Assembly (NCBI GenBank): GCA_045533335.1
Contig: JAZSHQ010000021.1
Span: forward strand, 2,648-66,647
DNA length: 64,000 nucleotides
DNA from: Eubacteriales bacterium
GTDB lineage: Bacteria > Bacillota > Clostridia > Oscillospirales > CAG-382
Reading direction: 5' to 3'
Under the pieces are notes generated by a model. It made no database searches. It saw nothing but the letters and a program-made list of their open reading frames with translations, and was not told where the DNA came from. This document shows positions 1 through 16,346 of this stretch, piece by piece; position 1 is the first letter of the stretch, and each line of letters opens with the position of its first letter. The position numbers and the translations under genes are program-made.

Positions 1-846
1 CGAAGGGATTTGACGGTAGGAAATATAAAGAGAATTCACATAGAAATTTTCTACGATTGCTTATCTGACGATGGATTATCTCCAAATTCAATTATAAGAT
101 ATCACGCGATAATGCGCAAAGCATTTAACCAAGCATTTAAAGATGAAGTTATCCTAAGCAATCCTTTTGATAAAGTGGACAGACCTCGCAAAAAGAGGTT
201 TATTGCCGATAACTATACCGAAAAGGAATGGAAACAAATATTAGAGATTACAAAAAACGATCCTATCTATCCCGCGATAGTATTAGCCGCATGTATGGGA
301 TTAAGAAGAAGCGAGGTATTGGGTGTGAGATGGTCGAGAATCAATTGGGATGATAACTCAATTCTCTTGGACACTAAAATTGCCGAATTTGATGAGCAAG
401 GTAAAAGAGTTATATCTGCTGTTGAAGAAATGAAAACCGAATCAAGTAGAAGAAAGCTCTATATGCCGCCTATGGTAGTCGATATGTTGAAGAATGAAAA
501 AGAAAAGCAAGAATTATATCGTGCTATGTTCAAAAGCGGATATTCGAAAGACTTTGAGGATTACGTATGTGTAAATCAATTGGGTGAGCTCTTAAAACCA
601 TCCTATGTAACAGGGCATTTTGCTACGTTATTGAAAAAGCACGGAATGCGACATATTCGTTTTCACGACTTACGCCATACCTTTGCGAGCATACTTATAA
701 ATAATCAAGTGCCTTTAATAAACGTATCTAATTTTCTTGGGCATTCTGATATATCAACCACGGCGAATATTTACTCGCATCTTGATATGAAAAGTATAAA
801 AAATGTTAGTGATGTAATTACTGCTGTTTTCGAGGGAGAGCTATGA
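1..846 (+). CDS. Tyrosine recombinase / phage-type integrase, 5'-truncated by the window edge
   Basis: The frame is open back to base 1 (the ORF track starts at TTG 10). Catalytic residues are readable: GLRRSEVLG (Arg), HDLRHTFAS (H-x-x-R), GHSDISTTANIYSH (His..Tyr nucleophile). Confidence 0.85.
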   Translation, partial: RRDLTVGNIKRIHIEIFYDCLSDDGLSPNSIIRYHAIMRKAFNQAFKDEVILSNPFDKVDRPRKKRFIADNYTEKEWKQILEITKNDPIYPAIVLAACMGLRRSEVLGVRWSRINWDDNSILLDTKIAEFDEQGKRVISAVEEMKTESSRRKLYMPPMVVDMLKNEKEKQELYRAMFKSGYSKDFEDYVCVNQLGELLKPSYVTGHFATLLKKHGMRHIRFHDLRHTFASILINNQVPLINVSNFLGHSDISTTANIYSHLDMKSIKNVSDVITAVFEGEL

Positions 847-1406
847 AAGTGAAACAAAAAAGTAATAAAGCATATTTAAGCGGTGAAGAACTGGCGAAAT
901 ATCTGCATATTTCAAAGAAAAAGATGAGATATCTATTAGAAAACAGATATATACCTGCGATAGATACGGGAAAGAAAACACATAGATATCAAATCGAAAA
1001 GAAGCATGCGCAAAAACTAAAGAAGCTTTTAGAACAAACCTATGTAACGCTTGCGTTAAAGGGAAAATTCGGCAGAATACCGCCTAAGGTGTCGATAGAG
1101 CCAACAGACGCTAACAGTATAAAATTCGGAGAATTTCTAACAAATAGGTGGAAAAACGAACCAGATGCCTTATATATACGAAGGGCATCGGAATTGACCG
1201 GTTTTGCTCGTCAGCGATTGGGTGAACTCTGTAATAAAGAAAAAATTCAATACGTAAAAGTGGGGCGACGGTTTGTATTGGTTAAGATAAGCTTTATCGA
1301 GTTTTGTTCTTCAAAAGAAATGTTATCTAAGATTCAAATCACTCCTGCGTTTCGAAAGCTTGCGAGTGATTTTTTGAAGACCACAAATGAAGAAAAATCA
1401 GATTAG
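843..1406 (+). CDS. Excisionase/MerR-like helix-turn-helix DNA-binding protein (putative Xis)
   Basis: ATGA overlap with the integrase stop. Two HTH-like stretches (LSGEELAKYLHISKKKMRYLLENRYIP; RRASELTGFARQRLGELCNKEKIQYVKVGRRFVL) resemble excisionase-family DNA binders. The gene sits beside the integrase. Confidence 0.55.
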   Translation: MKVKQKSNKAYLSGEELAKYLHISKKKMRYLLENRYIPAIDTGKKTHRYQIEKKHAQKLKKLLEQTYVTLALKGKFGRIPPKVSIEPTDANSIKFGEFLTNRWKNEPDALYIRRASELTGFARQRLGELCNKEKIQYVKVGRRFVLVKISFIEFCSSKEMLSKIQITPAFRKLASDFLKTTNEEKSD

Positions 1407-1734: not shown

Positions 1735-1823
1735 TGGCGCAGAGGGAGGGATTCGAACCCTCGTGTGGTTTCCCACAAACTGATTTCGAGTCAGCCCCGT
1801 TATGACCGCTTCGATACCTCTGC
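1735..1823 (-). tRNA. tRNA-Ser (anticodon CGA), class II, CCA encoded
   Basis: Read on the minus strand: acceptor GCAGAGG/CCTCTGC, anticodon loop CU-CGA-AA, long variable arm TTGTGGGAAACCACAC, T arm GAGGG-TTCGAAT-CCCTC, discriminator G plus CCA. Confidence 0.9.
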
Positions 1824-1878: not shown

Positions 1879-2022
1879 GCCCCGTTATGTCCGGTTTGCG
1901 GTGCCCGAAATTTTCTGTTCGCAAATCGCTCACAAAATTTCGACCGCTGCACGACGTCATCCTCGCTGTATCTGCCACAGGCAGCGCTCGGCTTCCGTCC
2001 CGCTTCGATACCTCTGCATAGT
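1879..2022 (-). pseudogene. Partial tRNA-Ser 5' copy (leader + nt 1-18 and nt ~19-33) split at the D-loop GG by a 106-nt insert
   Basis: 2000-2022 is 23/23 identical to 1806-1828 (tRNA 5' end plus leader ACTAT). 1879-1893 is 14/15 identical to 1794-1808. The two pieces are separated by 1894-1999 and each side carries CCG. No anticodon, T arm or 3' acceptor is present. Confidence 0.8.
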
Positions 2023-2235
2023 ATATAAGATATAGAGATGTTTTTTATAACGCACGGCGAATCACGCCGCGAGCACTATTGTATCACGGAAAAAGGTTTT
2101 TTGCAACAGTTTTTTGAAAAAATGTTTTAAAAATAGCGCGGTTGGGTGTCGATAATGCTTGATTTTGATTTTTTTGTATGTTAAACTTTAATTGTAAAGA
2201 GGCGATTACGTGTTTTTTTCGAAAGGTGATGCGGA

Positions 2236-2544
2236 ATGTGGCTTAAAATTCAAAAAATCTTGCGTTTTATCCCCGGAGTCAACCTTATAACTATGGTTGC
2301 GTGGTTTGTCGCGGGCGGAAAAAAGAAGCTTGGGTCGTATTATTTTGTGAAGAATATTGTAATAATGTTTGCCCTTGCGGCAATCGTTGTTATGATTGGG
2401 CGCGGAATTGCCACCTTTACCTCGAACATAGTGTATTCCAACGTAATGTTTTACCTTTCGTTGGTCGTATATTCCTATATTGTCGCCTTTATTTCGGTGA
2501 ACGAGCAGGAAAACATTATAAACGGAAAATACGACGCCGCTTAA
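2236..2544 (+). CDS. Small hypothetical membrane protein
   Basis: AAAGGTGA RBS about 8 nt upstream of the ATG. Two or three hydrophobic spans (ITMVAWFVAG, IVIMFALAAIVVMIG, VMFYLSLVVYSYIVAFISV). Followed by the 2625-2652 terminator. No recognisable family. Confidence 0.45.
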   Translation: MWLKIQKILRFIPGVNLITMVAWFVAGGKKKLGSYYFVKNIVIMFALAAIVVMIGRGIATFTSNIVYSNVMFYLSLVVYSYIVAFISVNEQENIINGKYDAA

Positions 2545-2624
2545 CACGCAGGAGGAACAAAAATAAAAACGCTATGAGCTGACGGCAGTATGGGCTGGCA
2601 AGATTGACTATAACATGGTAAAAA

Positions 2625-2652
2625 AGCTGTGTGGGTTAAAACTCACACAGCT
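2625..2652. terminator. Bidirectional hairpin terminator between convergent genes
   Basis: AGCTGTGTG (2625-2633) pairs with CACACAGCT (2644-2652). A-run upstream and T-run downstream. Confidence 0.65.
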
Positions 2653-2653
2653 T

Positions 2654-3058
2654 TTAATATTCCTCGCAATAGATCGAAACCGCAATAGCAAGCATACCGC
2701 CGTTGAATTCCTTTGCCTCCATATAGCAAAATACATCCAGCCCGCGCGAGATAAGCATATTCGGCAGGATCGAACACGAAAAAGGAAGCGAGCCTATTGC
2801 GGTACCGTCGGAACGCGTGGCTTCGAGCGTGGGGTTGAGCGACTTTTCGTTTCCGCGCACGAGCGAAAGCCTTTCGCCGAAGGTAAGGCTTTCGAAAAGC
2901 TCGCCCACCGAATCGCAAAGAAAAGAGCCTTGCAATTCACAAACGCCGATAAACGCACCCTTGTGCGGTGCAAGCTTTTTGAACAAATCGTGCACAAGCT
3001 CGCGATGGTCGGCAAGCAATTTTACAGTTATGGGATACAGCGACTTATCGATCTTCAT
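2654..3058 (-). CDS. Hypothetical protein, possibly HIRAN-like
   Basis: The track ORF (2654..3250) overlaps the 3' end of the giant gene. The internal ATG at 3058 (MKIDKSLYPI...) removes the overlap. The segment ERLSLVRGNEKSLNPTLEATRSDGTAIGSLP loosely resembles HIRAN domains, which is weak evidence. Confidence 0.4.
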   Translation of the reverse strand: MKIDKSLYPITVKLLADHRELVHDLFKKLAPHKGAFIGVCELQGSFLCDSVGELFESLTFGERLSLVRGNEKSLNPTLEATRSDGTAIGSLPFSCSILPNMLISRGLDVFCYMEAKEFNGGMLAIAVSIYCEEY

Positions 3059-3101
3059 TACGCACCTCGTAATGAGATTATAGCATCGATTTTGCGCTGT
3101 G

Positions 3102-6100
3102 TCAATCGTTAAGCGGGAGCATAAGCTTATGATTTCCGTCTGAAAGCGAAAGCGGGAAGGTTGCTTTGTTGCCGTCCAACTCCGCATATTCGGTTTCGCG
3201 CGCGGCCACAACGTGGATATGGGCGTTGCCGAGAGTGATATCGCACTCAAAGGCGATTACGGGCGAAGCGTCGAGCAGGGTTTGGTTTGCACCGAGCTTT
3301 AAGCCGAGGACCTGCTCGAGCATAATGCGGTAATACCACGAAGCCGCACCCGTATACCAGCTCCAACCGCCGCGTCCCGCAAAATCGCCGCCGTATATAT
3401 CCGCCGCAACGGCGTACGGCTCGGTTTTATAGCGCGAAGCCAGCTCCTTGTCGGCAGAGCGCGAAGCGGGGTTGGCGCAATCAAGAATAAGCAAGGCCTC
3501 CTCGGTCATTCCGCATTTCAAAAACCCAAGCGCGCCCCACAGCGCACCGTGGGTATATTGCCCGCCGTTTTCACGGATGCCCGCAACGTAGCCGCGTATA
3601 TAGCCAACGCGCGCATTGCCGTTGGTAAAGGGCGGCGAAAACAGCGAAAATATTCTGTTTTTGCGGTCATACAGCTTGGAAAATGCCGTATTTAGCGCGG
3701 TTTTTGTGCGTTCGGGGTCAAGCCCCGCGAGCGCGGCAAAGGCTTGCGACAGTATATCGATTTCGCATTCGCCGCAACCGTCGATACCCAATATTTTGCC
3801 GTCATCGCAGAATGCGCGCGCGTATCGGTCGCCGAAAAAGGCTTTTTCCTCGAGGTTTTTCTTAAAGCGTTCGATGCTTTCGCGGTAGTGTCGCGCCGTG
3901 TCCTTGTCCCCGCGGGAATCTATAAACGGCAAAAAGGCTGTTGCCGCGATAATAAACAGCATTGTCGAAAATACGCTTTCGCCGACCCCTTTCGCGCCGA
4001 CGAGTGAAAATGCATCGTTCCAATCGCAGGAGCCCATAAGAATAAGACCGTTTTTGCCGACACGCTCGGCGCAGGCGAGCGCGCGCAAACAATGGTGGTA
4101 AATGCTTTCTTTAATTTCGCTTCTTTCAGGGAGCTCGTAACGCTCGTTTTGCTTTCCGAGCGGGGGCGAGGTGAGATAATGCACCTCGATATCCAAAAGC
4201 GAGAAGTCGCCCGTTTTTTCGATATAATCGGCAATAACTATCGGCAGATAAAGCAGGTCGTCGGAGCATTTGCTTTTTATTCCGCTGTTAACGCGGTTTT
4301 GAACACGCGTGTGCCACCAATGCATAACGCTTCCGTCGAGATACTGATGAGCGCAACAACGGATAAGGTGTGTTCGCACGGTGCGGGGCGACGAATATAT
4401 AAGCGTAAGGCAATCCTGAAGCTGGTCGCGAAAGCCATAGGCACCGCCGCTTTGGTAAAACGAGCCGCGCGCATAAAAACGGCAGGCGGCAACCTGATAG
4501 GGAAGAAAGAAATTGAACATAAGGTTTTGCGCTTTGCTTTTTGTGGTCAGCTTTATTTTTGGAATAAAGGAATCGGCAAACGCCGCCGCTTCGGCAAGCG
4601 TCGAATCGAAAAAGGCGGTGTTAACGCGTGCGCAAATATTTTTTGCACCGCCTTCGGTCGTGCAGGCACCGATAAAAAAGAGCGTGCTGTTGCCGATATG
4701 AGAAAGACATTTTCTTTCTGCGTCGGCGGCACCGTTGCAAACACCCACAAAGCCGCGCCCCTCGGGGAAGGTAATACCGAAGCTGTTTTTGAACATAAGA
4801 CAGCTGTTTCCCGAAACGGCGGTTTGCATAATTTCGATACCGCTTTGCGGTGCAACGCCGTTGCCCATAACCAGCTCGATACAAAACCGCGTTTCGATAT
4901 CGCCTGCGGCGTATTCCACACGCATAAGCTTTATCGGGAATTTAGGATGGACGGTAACGGTAAGCGTGTAATCTGTTCCGTTTACGCTTCCGCAATAGAC
5001 CGCTTTGCCCGCTTCAAACCGCACGCTTTGCGAAATTGCGCAAAGGTCGTAGCGTTTGCCGTTGATAATCGCAAATATGCGTTCTCCGTTATCGAGCGAG
5101 CGCGCGTCGCCGTAAAACGAGCAAAGCCTGCGTTCGCGCGCGTTGTCGTAAAAGGTATAGCCGAGGCTCGATTGCGTAACGATGGTCGAAAACCTTTTTC
5201 CGGTAAGAACGAAGGAATAGGGCGCGTCGGGGAGCGTGCTTTTATCGACGGTAAAGCTTTTTTCGGTAAAAAAGCCGTAATTCGTTTTTAAAGCGCCGTT
5301 TGGCATAGTGAGCGCGCGGGTGACCGTCGGGCACGCGATTATCTCCTCGCCAAACGCGGTCAGCGGTTTATTGCTTTTGCGGTTTGATGAAAAATCGTAA
5401 TAAAAATCCGCTTTGCCTTTAAGCGCGGCAATAAATTCCTTGTCGGTTTCGCTTTCGCGCAGAATAAATATTCCGCCGTTCGCGCCTAAATACTGCGTTA
5501 GTCTGTTTGCGGCGCAACGCTCGCGCAGGGCCTTTTCGACAGGTCGGTTGTAGCCGTCGCTGTCCGAAACGATAAATATAAGCTCACAGCGTATGCAGGC
5601 GCGCACAAGTGCAACGTAGGCGTTCAATATCGCGTCGGTGCGGCTTATTGCCGTTTCGGAAATATGCACCAGCACTATCGGGTGGTCACCCGATATACCG
5701 CGCGCCCAAAGGTCGTTTATGCTGTATTTTGAAAGGGTATCGACCTTTTTGCCGCCCGAACGGTAAAGAATAGCGGGAAGCATTTTATCGAGCATTTCGC
5801 TTTGCAGTGAAAATCCGTATTCGCTTTTATCGGCGCGTGCAAGGCGAATGTTTTTTTCGCATTCGCTTTTGGTTTCGCCGCAGGCGATAAGAAAAACGGC
5901 ACGGCCGCCTTCTGCATTTTGGGCGCGAATAAGGCAAAGCGGGTCTATGCAAGCTCCCGTTTTGTTATCTGTTTCGAGCATTGCGTAATCGAAAACGTTT
6001 GTGACCGAGCTTGCCTTTAACGATTCGCGGCTCGTGATAAAGGAAATATCGGTATCTTTTTCGCGCGGGGCAACAGCGAGGGTAAAAATATGCCTGCCGT

Positions 6101-15871: not shown

Positions 15872-15925
15872 AAACAAAAAACGGCTCGCGCCGCTATAGT
15901 GTTTGTTATTTTTGAACGCGCAAAT
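15872..15925 (-). repeat. Orphan copy of the 3' end plus terminator of the 15375-15791 gene
   Basis: 15872-15925 aligns with 15341-15394 (terminator hairpin, stop codon and the last ~7 codons) with 7 mismatches by eye. No ORF is attached to the second copy. Confidence 0.6.
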
Positions 15926-15983
15926 CCCGTGTTCGTGCCCAATCGACCGCAGATTCAATCTTACGTAAAACGCAAAACAAAAA

Positions 15984-16009: not shown

Positions 16010-16086
16010 TGGTCTGAGTGAGAGGATTTGAACCTCCGGCCTCTTGGTCCCGAACCAAGCGCTCTACCAAGCTGAGCCACACCCAG
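16010..16086 (-). tRNA. tRNA-Pro (anticodon CGG), CCA encoded
   Basis: Minus strand: acceptor CTGGGTG/CACTCAG, D arm GCTCAGCTTGGTAGAGC, anticodon arm CTTGG-TT-CGG-GA-CCAAG (G37), T arm GGAGG-TTCAAAT-CCTCT, A-CCA. Confidence 0.9.
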
Positions 16087-16120
16087 ATATTAAATTGTTA
16101 TTATTGATTGTCGCAAAACG

Positions 16121-16310
16121 CCAAGCGCTCTTCCTGTTGCGACTAAGGCTCTGTCTGCGTTCGCTTTTCCCTAAAAATGCACGCATTTTCAGGGGATCTA
16201 TATTCGTTGCTCACTTGCCAATCGCCAAGTCGCTGCCACTCGTTTTTGCTCGCTGTATCTGTCCCTGACAGCGCTCACAAAAACTCCCCAAGCTGAGCCA
16301 CACCCAGATA
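16121..16310 (-). pseudogene. Partial tRNA-Pro 5' copy (leader + nt 1-20 and nt ~22-32) split at the D-loop GG by a ~153-nt insert homologous to the tRNA-Ser insert
   Basis: 16288-16310 is 23/23 identical to 16067-16089. 16121-16134 is 13/14 identical to 16055-16068. The insert 16135-16287 is flanked by CC on both sides. The anticodon loop, T arm and 3' acceptor are missing. Confidence 0.8.
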
Positions 16311-16317
16311 CTCGGCT

Positions 16318-16346
16318 ATTATAACAAAACCGAGGTGCTTTGTCAA
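16318..16346 (-). promoter_or_regulatory. Consensus sigma-A-type promoter driving the split tRNA-Pro fragment and, by read-through, tRNA-Pro
   Basis: Minus strand reads TTGACA (16346-16341), a 17-nt spacer, TATAAT (16323-16318), then 7 nt, then the TAT leader and tRNA nt 1 at 16307. Confidence 0.7.

Follow-up and report, generated by a model that had tools for sequence, protein, structure and literature searches.

A structured element in partial tRNA duplicates of a Eubacteriales genome belongs to a widespread Clostridia family absent from Rfam

We analysed a 64-kb stretch of contig JAZSHQ010000021.1 from a Eubacteriales bacterium (the window, to which all coordinates refer), in which a tRNA-Pro and a tRNA-Ser gene are each preceded by a partial copy of their own 5′ end interrupted by an insert, designated here element E. 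The tRNA-Pro unit is read on the minus strand, that is, in tRNA sense. Each of the parts that the original prediction, made from the sequence without database searches, had placed in order upstream of this gene was found there:

16346–16318, minus strand: sigma-70 consensus promoter, TTGACA-17-TATAAT with a TG extension, with 12/12 consensus matches
16288–16310, minus strand: upstream copy of repeat H, TAT plus tRNA-Pro nt 1–20, ending at the D-loop GG (repeat finder: 23 nt, 100% identical to 16067–16089)
16132–16287, minus strand: element E, Pro-type copy of about 156 nt, from GGAG... to ...CAACAGGA, delimited by the family end consensus and by comparison with the intact tRNA
16121–16131, minus strand: remnant of tRNA-Pro nt 21–31 (AGAGCGCUUGG), giving the D-stem 3′ strand that closes element E
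16121–16134, minus strand: second repeat (D2), GGAAGAGCGCTTGG, equal to tRNA nt 18–31 (repeat finder: 14 nt, 13/14 or 93% identical to 16055–16068)
16087–16120, minus strand: AT-rich spacer of 34 nt, homologous to the native tRNA-Pro leader of a relative (L123)
16010–16086, minus strand: intact tRNA-Pro(CGG), an Rfam tRNA match at gathering score
15973–16011, minus strand: intrinsic terminator of the tRNA-Pro unit

The truncated duplicate hosting E spans the first 31 bases of tRNA-Pro, and the identities predicted for its two segments, 23/23 and 13/14, are those returned by the repeat finder. The copies of repeat H are 198 nt apart, with no open reading frame (ORF) and no integrase between them. 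The promoter, a full consensus as predicted, is separated from the leader TAT by 7 bases and is the sole promoter-like site between 15850 and 16450, serving the whole unit; a homologous promoter directly adjoins tRNA-Pro in a relative (L124). Terminators in the same interval were found only after the tRNA, with none between the promoter or E and tRNA-Pro, in agreement with the prediction that the strongest promoter fires into the fragment plus insert. Since this sole promoter reads through both, the natural reading of the sequence is that E is co-transcribed with tRNA-Pro.

The tRNA-Ser locus follows the same plan:

1735–1823, minus strand: intact tRNA-Ser(CGA), an Rfam tRNA match at gathering score
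2000–2041, minus strand: upstream copy of the tRNA-Ser leader plus nt 1–18/19 (42-nt repeat, 88% identical to 1806–1847)
1879–1896, minus strand: second tRNA-Ser repeat (18 nt, 89% identical to 1794–1811)
1890–2005, minus strand: second copy of E, of canonical type, within the D-loop of the partial tRNA-Ser 5′ copy (match to covariance model R1, 108.4 bits, E = 3.9e-23)

The proposed homology of the two inserts was borne out. Both contain GCGCTGYC-NNN-GRCAGATACAGCGAG, for which shuffles of the window lead one to expect 0.00 matches, and R1, a model built from other genomes, also recovers the Pro copy (45.7 bits, E = 7e-9, 16201–16293); a scan of the window with R1 found no copy beyond these two. 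The Pro copy belongs to a subtype whose distal domain differs. Single-sequence fold z-scores were unremarkable for both leaders (−1.45 and −1.58), and the support for a structure comes from covariation, not from folding energy.

The original prediction had allowed that only these two copies might exist, or that the insert might map to an already described repeat family. An exact scan of one genome per species (GTDB) with the pattern GAGCGCTG-N8-12-AGATACAGCGAG, which holds the 28-nt core invariant, identified at least 119 loci. Among the matches listed, 115 are in metagenome-assembled genomes (MAGs) of Clostridia and four in unrelated phyla, the latter without the remainder of the element; our own rough estimate of about five chance matches for this pattern fits these outliers. 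The carriers among the matches listed are MAGs of Oscillospiraceae, Acutalibacteraceae, Faecousia, Ruminococcaceae, Faecalibacterium, Congzhengia and Christensenellaceae, with a few Lachnospiraceae; E is thus spread over Oscillospirales and related Clostridia, many of them from the gut. Searching the 8-kb blocks of MAG contigs around the copies with R1 added 17 copies with non-exact cores, with up to three copies per block, and the length of E ranges from about 110 to 150 nt across the family. A scan of viral contigs gave a single match, so E is not a phage RNA. Comparison with Rfam 15 (4227 families) produced tRNA matches alone at gathering score, and even at E ≤ 10 nothing overlapped E in either window copy or in the best-scoring member (L039); no relevant paper was retrieved when the literature was searched by topic or with the core sequence itself. 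These results establish E as a real, widespread and strongly structured family, absent from Rfam and apparently not described so far. All-against-all clustering of the ORFs within 3 kb of every copy revealed no recurrent neighbour protein (transposase, reverse transcriptase or nuclease), and the ORFs immediately up- and downstream of the copies are unrelated to one another. No autonomous version, with the 5′ and 3′ domains split by cargo, was found among the copies; one candidate (L094) was rejected, being just a truncated copy followed by an ORF for a small membrane protein.

The architecture of E is 5′-GG(G) - P2 [GAGCG - hairpin CUGCC·NGU·GGCAG - AUACAGCGAG] P2′ - G - P3 [variable hairpin P4] P3′ - NGG-R-3′, with two helical domains, of which P2 encloses a near-invariant 28-nt core and P3 a long variable hairpin. 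In the Pro copy these parts are as follows:

16249–16276, minus strand: conserved core, made of GAGCG, hairpin CUGUC-AGG-GACAG and AUACAGCGAG, with compensatory variants in other copies and in the ortholog L120
16277–16286, minus strand: P2 5′ strand (GAGUUUUUGU), pairing with 16239–16248, from the P2 covariation in alignment A2 and the sequence
16239–16248, minus strand: P2 3′ strand (CAAAAACGAG), pairing with 16277–16286
16228–16238, minus strand: P3 5′ strand (UG..GCGACU), from family-wide P3 covariation
16145–16227, minus strand: variable distal domain inside P3, including a lineage-specific hairpin at 16169–16194 (inverted repeat I1)
16135–16144, minus strand: P3 3′ strand (AGUCGC-AA-CA), from family-wide P3 covariation

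Mutual information, RNAalifold and explicit pair counts were concordant on this fold in an alignment of 51 non-redundant copies (A2). Its helices are paired in 92.2% of cells, versus 73.5% in shuffles, and 273 cells show changes on both sides, versus 93. The covariation score was 0.435 versus 0.126 in shuffled alignments, none of 500 shuffles reaching the former value, and dropped to about 0.09 when partners were slid by 1–3 columns. P3, for instance, appears as GCGGU/ACCGC, GUGGU/ACCAC, GCGACU/AGUCGC or GCAACU/AGUUGC. The core also evolves by compensation, since the 17 non-exact copies found with R1 show paired changes, with core hairpins CUGCC/GGCAG, CCGCC/GGCGG and CGUCC/GGACG; the core pair G3-C varies as GAGCG..CAGCGAG, GACCG..CAGGGAG and GAACG..CAGUGAG. 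P2 includes tandem G·A/A·G pairs, replaced by Watson-Crick pairs in other copies. Pairs of G·U (1.6%) are as rare as A·C mismatches, with 23 versus 17 of 1398 cells in A2, and as a test of strand choice these counts show no asymmetry. Such scarcity is unusual for an RNA family and seems to fit selection on DNA hairpins better than selection on RNA. The flanks of some copies form a covarying closing helix, GGGGUG/CACCCC versus GCGAUG/CAUCGC. The variable distal domain is shorter in L045, L092 and L120.

Tandem G·A pairs were also frequent family-wide in A2. Additionally, P2 plus core is joined to very different 3′ domains in two other subfamilies (L012, L019, L025, L083, L088, L006 and L051; L040 and L100), one of which is enclosed by GCCGCUUUU/AAAAGCGGC and lies directly after a stop codon, the other being specific to Christensenellaceae. 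Because P2 plus core occurs with differing 3′ domains, the core hairpin may be the true conserved unit.

The genomic context was recorded for 125 core matches (the two window copies and 124 from fetched loci, less one at a contig end). GG is present at the 5′ end of E in 85–93% and at the 3′ end in 79–83%, and no flank consensus was found beyond these GG ends. The GG that the original prediction had noted on both sides of the insert is present; however, it does not represent a target-site duplication, because GG(G)... and ...NGG-R are the element's own conserved ends. These ends, GG(G)GA... and ...CAACAGGA, are not inverted repeats, and the only inverted repeats of E are its internal hairpins; E thus has no terminal inverted repeats of the kind that define MITEs (miniature transposable elements with inverted repeats). 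Nor did the copies show a target-site duplication of fixed length, flanking repeats being absent in about half of them and 16–79 nt long in the rest.

A same-strand tRNA lies 100–480 nt downstream in 37 of the 125 core matches (about 30%), represented by Ser-CGA, Ser-GCU, Ser-UGA, Leu-CAG, Leu-UAA, Leu-UAG, Leu-CAA, Pro-CGG, Pro-UGG and Trp-CCA. The 5′ flank of these copies is the tRNA leader plus nt 1–19, with an exact match of 16–49 nt in most loci, and stops at the D-loop GG, or at GGCAG for Leu; after E, the tRNA sequence continues from nt 21 up to nt 25–46. At tRNA sites U20 is lost, not duplicated, and is always replaced by the terminal purine of E. The junction after G19 recurs at Ser, Pro and Trp loci of many genomes. 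Other copies are situated after TTGGG in the anticodon loop of partial tRNA-Pro copies (L102, L074, L036 and L058), in 3′ partial tRNA copies downstream of the intact tRNA, either at the variable loop (L084) or at the T-stem (L007), or in loops of palindromes resembling repetitive extragenic palindromic (REP) sequences, as GGCGGGGTG[E]CACCCCGCC (L024, L071, L117 and L056). A partial 5S rRNA copy hosts two more insertions (L096 and L112), which run antisense to both 5S and the rrn operon beside it, and the copies antisense to the rrn operon retain full model scores. All these insertion points (tRNA, REP-like and 5S) follow GG. The proposed tRNA-D-loop-targeting miniature element was roughly right as to the miniature element, whereas the D-loop is one of several GG-loop contexts. 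Furthermore, E is commonly found 15–60 nt past the stop codon of a same-strand gene, same-strand upstream genes outnumbering opposite-strand ones by 51 to 30. There are also nested or tandem copies (L022, L041, L015, L084 and L105) and decayed ones (L096 and L050).

Two further observations concern these surroundings. In six loci (L013, L024, L087, L104, L116 and L117) from high-GC Oscillospiraceae MAGs, E is surrounded by densely clustered REP-like palindromes (…GTAGGGCGGCATG…CATGCCGCCCTAC…), TAGG being one of their loops. Extra element-free partial tRNA 5′ copies, from nt 1 to about nt 38–41, occur between the E-bearing fragment and the intact tRNA in L003, L027, L037, L075 and L102.

The original prediction had called for a comparison of orthologous tRNA-Pro loci. 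These were fetched through homologs of RuvX, whose identities are given in brackets, and this empty-site comparison covers the tRNA-Pro locus alone. E is intact in the window, in L009 and in L120–L122 (93%), and the core of L120 reads GAACG-CCGCC-GGG-GGCGG-UUGCAGUGAG. Only the 5′ half of E is left in L125 (85%), where the deletion extends into the spacer, and about 35 nt in L126 (81%). In L124, the sister of L125, TATAAT and acgttggTAT are followed directly by the tRNA, with no E and no duplicate, which is exactly the state that recombination between the two H repeats would yield. L123 (85%) contains the promoter, a 48-nt leader including the homolog of the window spacer, and the tRNA, without E or fragment; judging from this arrangement, it looks like the unoccupied state. 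E has therefore been gained, lost and eroded among relatives. It is dispensable at this locus, and its fold is kept wherever it persists. An indispensable leader function is argued against because close relatives carry a truncated E or none; this, and the about two thirds of copies without a same-strand tRNA downstream, contradict the earlier suggestion of an RNA specific to tRNA leaders. A dedicated tRNA-leader function is thus unlikely, and E at tRNA-Pro looks like a dispensable passenger.

The tRNA-Pro(CGG) behind E in L120–L122 (about 2160–3414) is cut at the anticodon loop by an island with its own, different tRNA-Pro(CGG) and a PF00589 integrase. About 230 nt downstream of their intact gene, L124 and L125 (about 1950–2200) carry a 3′ partial tRNA-Pro (T-arm plus acceptor) and an anticodon-arm remnant, which look like old attachment-site (att) scars; the window contains a homologous remnant, 'cggtcgattgggcacgaacacggga', at 15900–15960.

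Multiplication within a genome was observed in MAG CAYVLD01, which contains at least six copies of E on six contigs (L002, L014, L061, L086, L109 and L111). The three comparable copies share 96% identity, against at most 84% with copies of any other genome, which shows that at least one E subfamily has recently multiplied within a genome. In this MAG, E is the cargo of a repeat of about 300 nt bounded by the terminal inverted repeats AAATTCCGATTTATC / GATTAATCGGAATTT. Of the six contigs, five stop within this repeat or just after it, no more than about 130 nt from the copy.

With several dispersed copies per genome and presence/absence polymorphism, E behaves as interspersed repeats do. We propose, with the balance of evidence about even, that E is a non-autonomous, structure-defined mobile interspersed repeat that lands after GG in hairpin loops, is co-transcribed with its host and is removed with the leader. 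Following this proposal, E would proliferate within genomes and land immediately 3′ of GG, often in a hairpin loop (D-loop, anticodon loop or REP-like loop), and the host stem would then close the inserted element. In RNA genes, insertions would survive only in redundant partial duplicates, which would account for the layout of split 5′ fragment, insert and intact tRNA; such partial copies would arise at both window loci, which are integration hot spots. E would be transcribed within the leader of about 230 nt of tRNA-Pro and presumably discarded with it upon the predicted RNase P cut at the tRNA 5′ end, and the tRNA would stay functional because RNase P would remove the whole leader. The fold would be the recognised feature and may form on single-stranded DNA, as suggested by helices of Watson-Crick pairs only, structured ends, a GG both on the left of the element and at its 3′ end, and targets in hairpin loops. 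The partial duplicate (leader plus tRNA nt 1–31) may have come from a small circle by Campbell-type integration, from a tandem duplication that then received the insertion, or from a duplication that the insertion itself provoked.

Several observations weigh against a mobile repeat. No demonstrated mechanism accounts for the partial tRNA duplication, and no transposase, terminal inverted repeat or target-site duplication was found associated with E itself. The conservation of the core and of unpaired purine-rich loops across several Clostridia families, together with helix covariation, is a signature of functional RNAs, and a selfish repeat with a conserved core would need continuous selection for a trans-acting partner. 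Between the window and L120, three core pairs and one pair in P3 have changed with compensation, and no uncompensated stem change was seen. In most genomes other than CAYVLD01, paralogs are nearer to copies of other genomes than to each other, which fits old, vertically inherited copies. The closing helix (P1) was not significant overall as a general feature (p = 0.32) and was found in subsets only. Finally, all 37 tRNA-linked copies are in tRNA sense, but this is no independent test because the search covered same-strand downstream tRNAs only.

In the main alternative, which is possible although we consider it doubtful, E would be a new structured RNA module with a function, be it as protein-binding scaffold, self-cleaving ribozyme or ligand-sensing aptamer, acting in cis in tRNA leaders and mRNA 3′/5′ untranslated regions, with copies that spread like T-boxes or riboswitches or are carried passively by repeats. 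The strong covariation in all helices argues for this, as do the compensatory changes inside the core and in situ between orthologs, the conserved asymmetric internal loops with tandem G·A pairs, and a core conserved, unpaired nucleotides included, in Oscillospiraceae, Acutalibacteraceae, Ruminococcaceae, Christensenellaceae and some Lachnospiraceae. E also lies on the transcribed strand behind the sole promoter at tRNA-Pro and in sense orientation at tRNAs, and the flanks of some copies add the covarying closing helix. However, there is no consistent gene association, E is dispensable, truncated or absent at orthologous tRNA-Pro loci, the rrn-antisense copies keep full model scores and G·U pairs are almost absent; likewise, decayed and tandem copies, a burst of proliferation in one subfamily and the lack of any match to Rfam even at the permissive threshold used do not favour a functional RNA. 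The two explanations are not exclusive, and a mobile module could carry an RNA-level activity. A riboswitch or cis-regulatory leader was rejected: the structure is conserved, but the downstream genes are unrelated, most copies follow genes and there is no terminator between E and tRNA-Pro. Readings considered by eye, and dropped because no sequence or Rfam support was noticed, were K-turn, sarcin-ricin, hammerhead/twister, group II domain V, retron msr/msd, omega-RNA, bridge RNA and single-strand origin.

A more specific form of mobility, which we regard as unlikely, would make E a structure-guided element homing to GG-bearing hairpin loops of stable-RNA genes and REP-like palindromes, and inserting with, or provoking, a gene-sparing partial duplication. 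Its core would then be the recognition site or catalytic centre for a single-strand transposase or for a pathway of ribozyme plus reverse transcription.

It is still less probable that tyrosine-integrase islands, entering these tRNA genes repeatedly, left the split fragment and spacer as scars, with E as an island terminus remaining after deletion. Both tRNA loci are integration hot spots: L120–L122 have tRNA-Pro cut at its anticodon loop by an island, L124 and L125 retain a 3′ remnant of tRNA-Pro downstream of the gene, and an integrase/HTH_17 module adjoins tRNA-Ser in the window. Partial tRNA copies lacking E and ending at nt 38–41 (L003, L037, L075 and L102) point in the same direction. 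At known integrase crossovers, the exchange affects the tRNA's anticodon loop, T-loop or 3′ end, with duplication of the 3′ part. In contrast, the break here is at D-loop nt 19/20 and it is the 5′ part that is duplicated; moreover, E occurs at many non-tRNA sites without flanking repeats and is rare in viral contigs. A duplication of the integrase att site was rejected on the 198 nt without ORF or integrase that separate the window repeats, a true island of this type being found downstream in L120–L122. A tRNA intron (group I or archaeal-type) was also discarded: the interrupted copies end at nt 25–46, without the 3′ half, and the intact tRNA is a separate downstream gene. Lastly, partial tRNA duplicates do exist in these genomes, but random decay of a simple tandem tRNA duplication with coincidental similarity of the inserts is refuted by a conserved insert family (E-values 1e-9 to 1e-23) with at least 119 loci, by the zero core matches expected in shuffles and by the recurring G19 junction, and is hardly conceivable.

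Among known systems, the closest relatives of E are REP sequences and bacterial interspersed mosaic elements (BIMEs), and the palindrome-associated transposable elements (PATEs) of the IS200/IS605 family. Like E, REP/BIME elements and REPINs, which are linked to the IS200/IS605-like Y1 transposases RAYT, are high-copy, extragenic, structure-defined and mostly located after gene 3′ ends; they also show compensatory helix upkeep, have no internal transposase and form mosaic clusters with other palindromes, E occurring even inside REP-like loops. However, REPs are species-specific simple palindromes of 20–40 nt, whereas E has 110–150 nt and two domains, with an asymmetric internal-loop core common to several bacterial families. 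REP/BIME elements are mobilised by RAYT, whereas among the ORFs within 3 kb of the copies of E no transposase recurs. PATEs, which move as folded single-stranded DNA, share with E the lack of terminal inverted repeats, the structured subterminal domains, a strand-specific fold, Watson-Crick-only helices and possibly a short sequence at the left flank and at their own 3′ end. In E this sequence would be GG, which precedes the element and, as GG-R, ends it, with just two bases specified. Known PATE targets are defined sequences of four or five nucleotides, for example TTAC or TTGAT, unlike those of E, and flanking partial gene duplications are not known from PATEs; no cognate TnpA/TnpB for E was found in the 8-kb MAG blocks around the copies. 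MITEs (Correia/NEMIS, ERIC, RUP and BOX) are, like E, small, non-autonomous, co-transcribed with their neighbours and foldable as RNA; E differs in having neither terminal inverted repeats nor a fixed target-site duplication, although in CAYVLD01 it is the cargo of a repeat truly bounded by such inverted repeats. The intervening sequences of 23S rRNA helices and the R2-type elements of rRNA genes are also structured sequences in the hairpin loop of a stable-RNA gene, transcribed from the host promoter, but the gene copy that they interrupt is the functional one and RNase III or a ribozyme removes them, whereas E interrupts truncated redundant copies only. Finally, tRNA-targeting integrative islands, with their att duplications, resemble the E loci in having a partial tRNA copy beside the intact tRNA at the same hot spots, and differ from them in the duplicated part, the junction, the distance of about 200 nt between repeats at E loci and the integrase, absent from the latter.

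As a mobile repeat, E would add a large and elaborate family, conserved across bacterial families, to the small repeat repertoire of gut Firmicutes; it would also account for contig breaks and pseudo-tRNA fragments in MAGs, and provide a handle on a mobilising enzyme with an unusual preference for hairpin loops. If E is instead a functional RNA, its hundreds of representatives in the tRNA leaders and at the mRNA 3′ ends of bacteria dominant in human and animal guts would make it a widespread new motif, a typical starting point toward a new ribozyme, riboswitch or RNA-protein system. The covariance model, together with the empty, filled and decayed alleles, makes the question directly testable.

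Two ORFs lie beside the tRNA-Ser locus of the window. The product of ORF 843–1406 (plus strand) is an excisionase-like HTH_17 protein, and an 89%-identical homolog is located directly after a tyrosine integrase in L128. As this homolog directly follows an integrase, ORF 10–846 (plus strand) probably codes for an integrase C-terminus, and an integrative element probably adjoins the 3′ side of tRNA-Ser(CGA), as read from gene order. The HTH_17 gene, which has few homologs, is an accessory gene of this integrative element.

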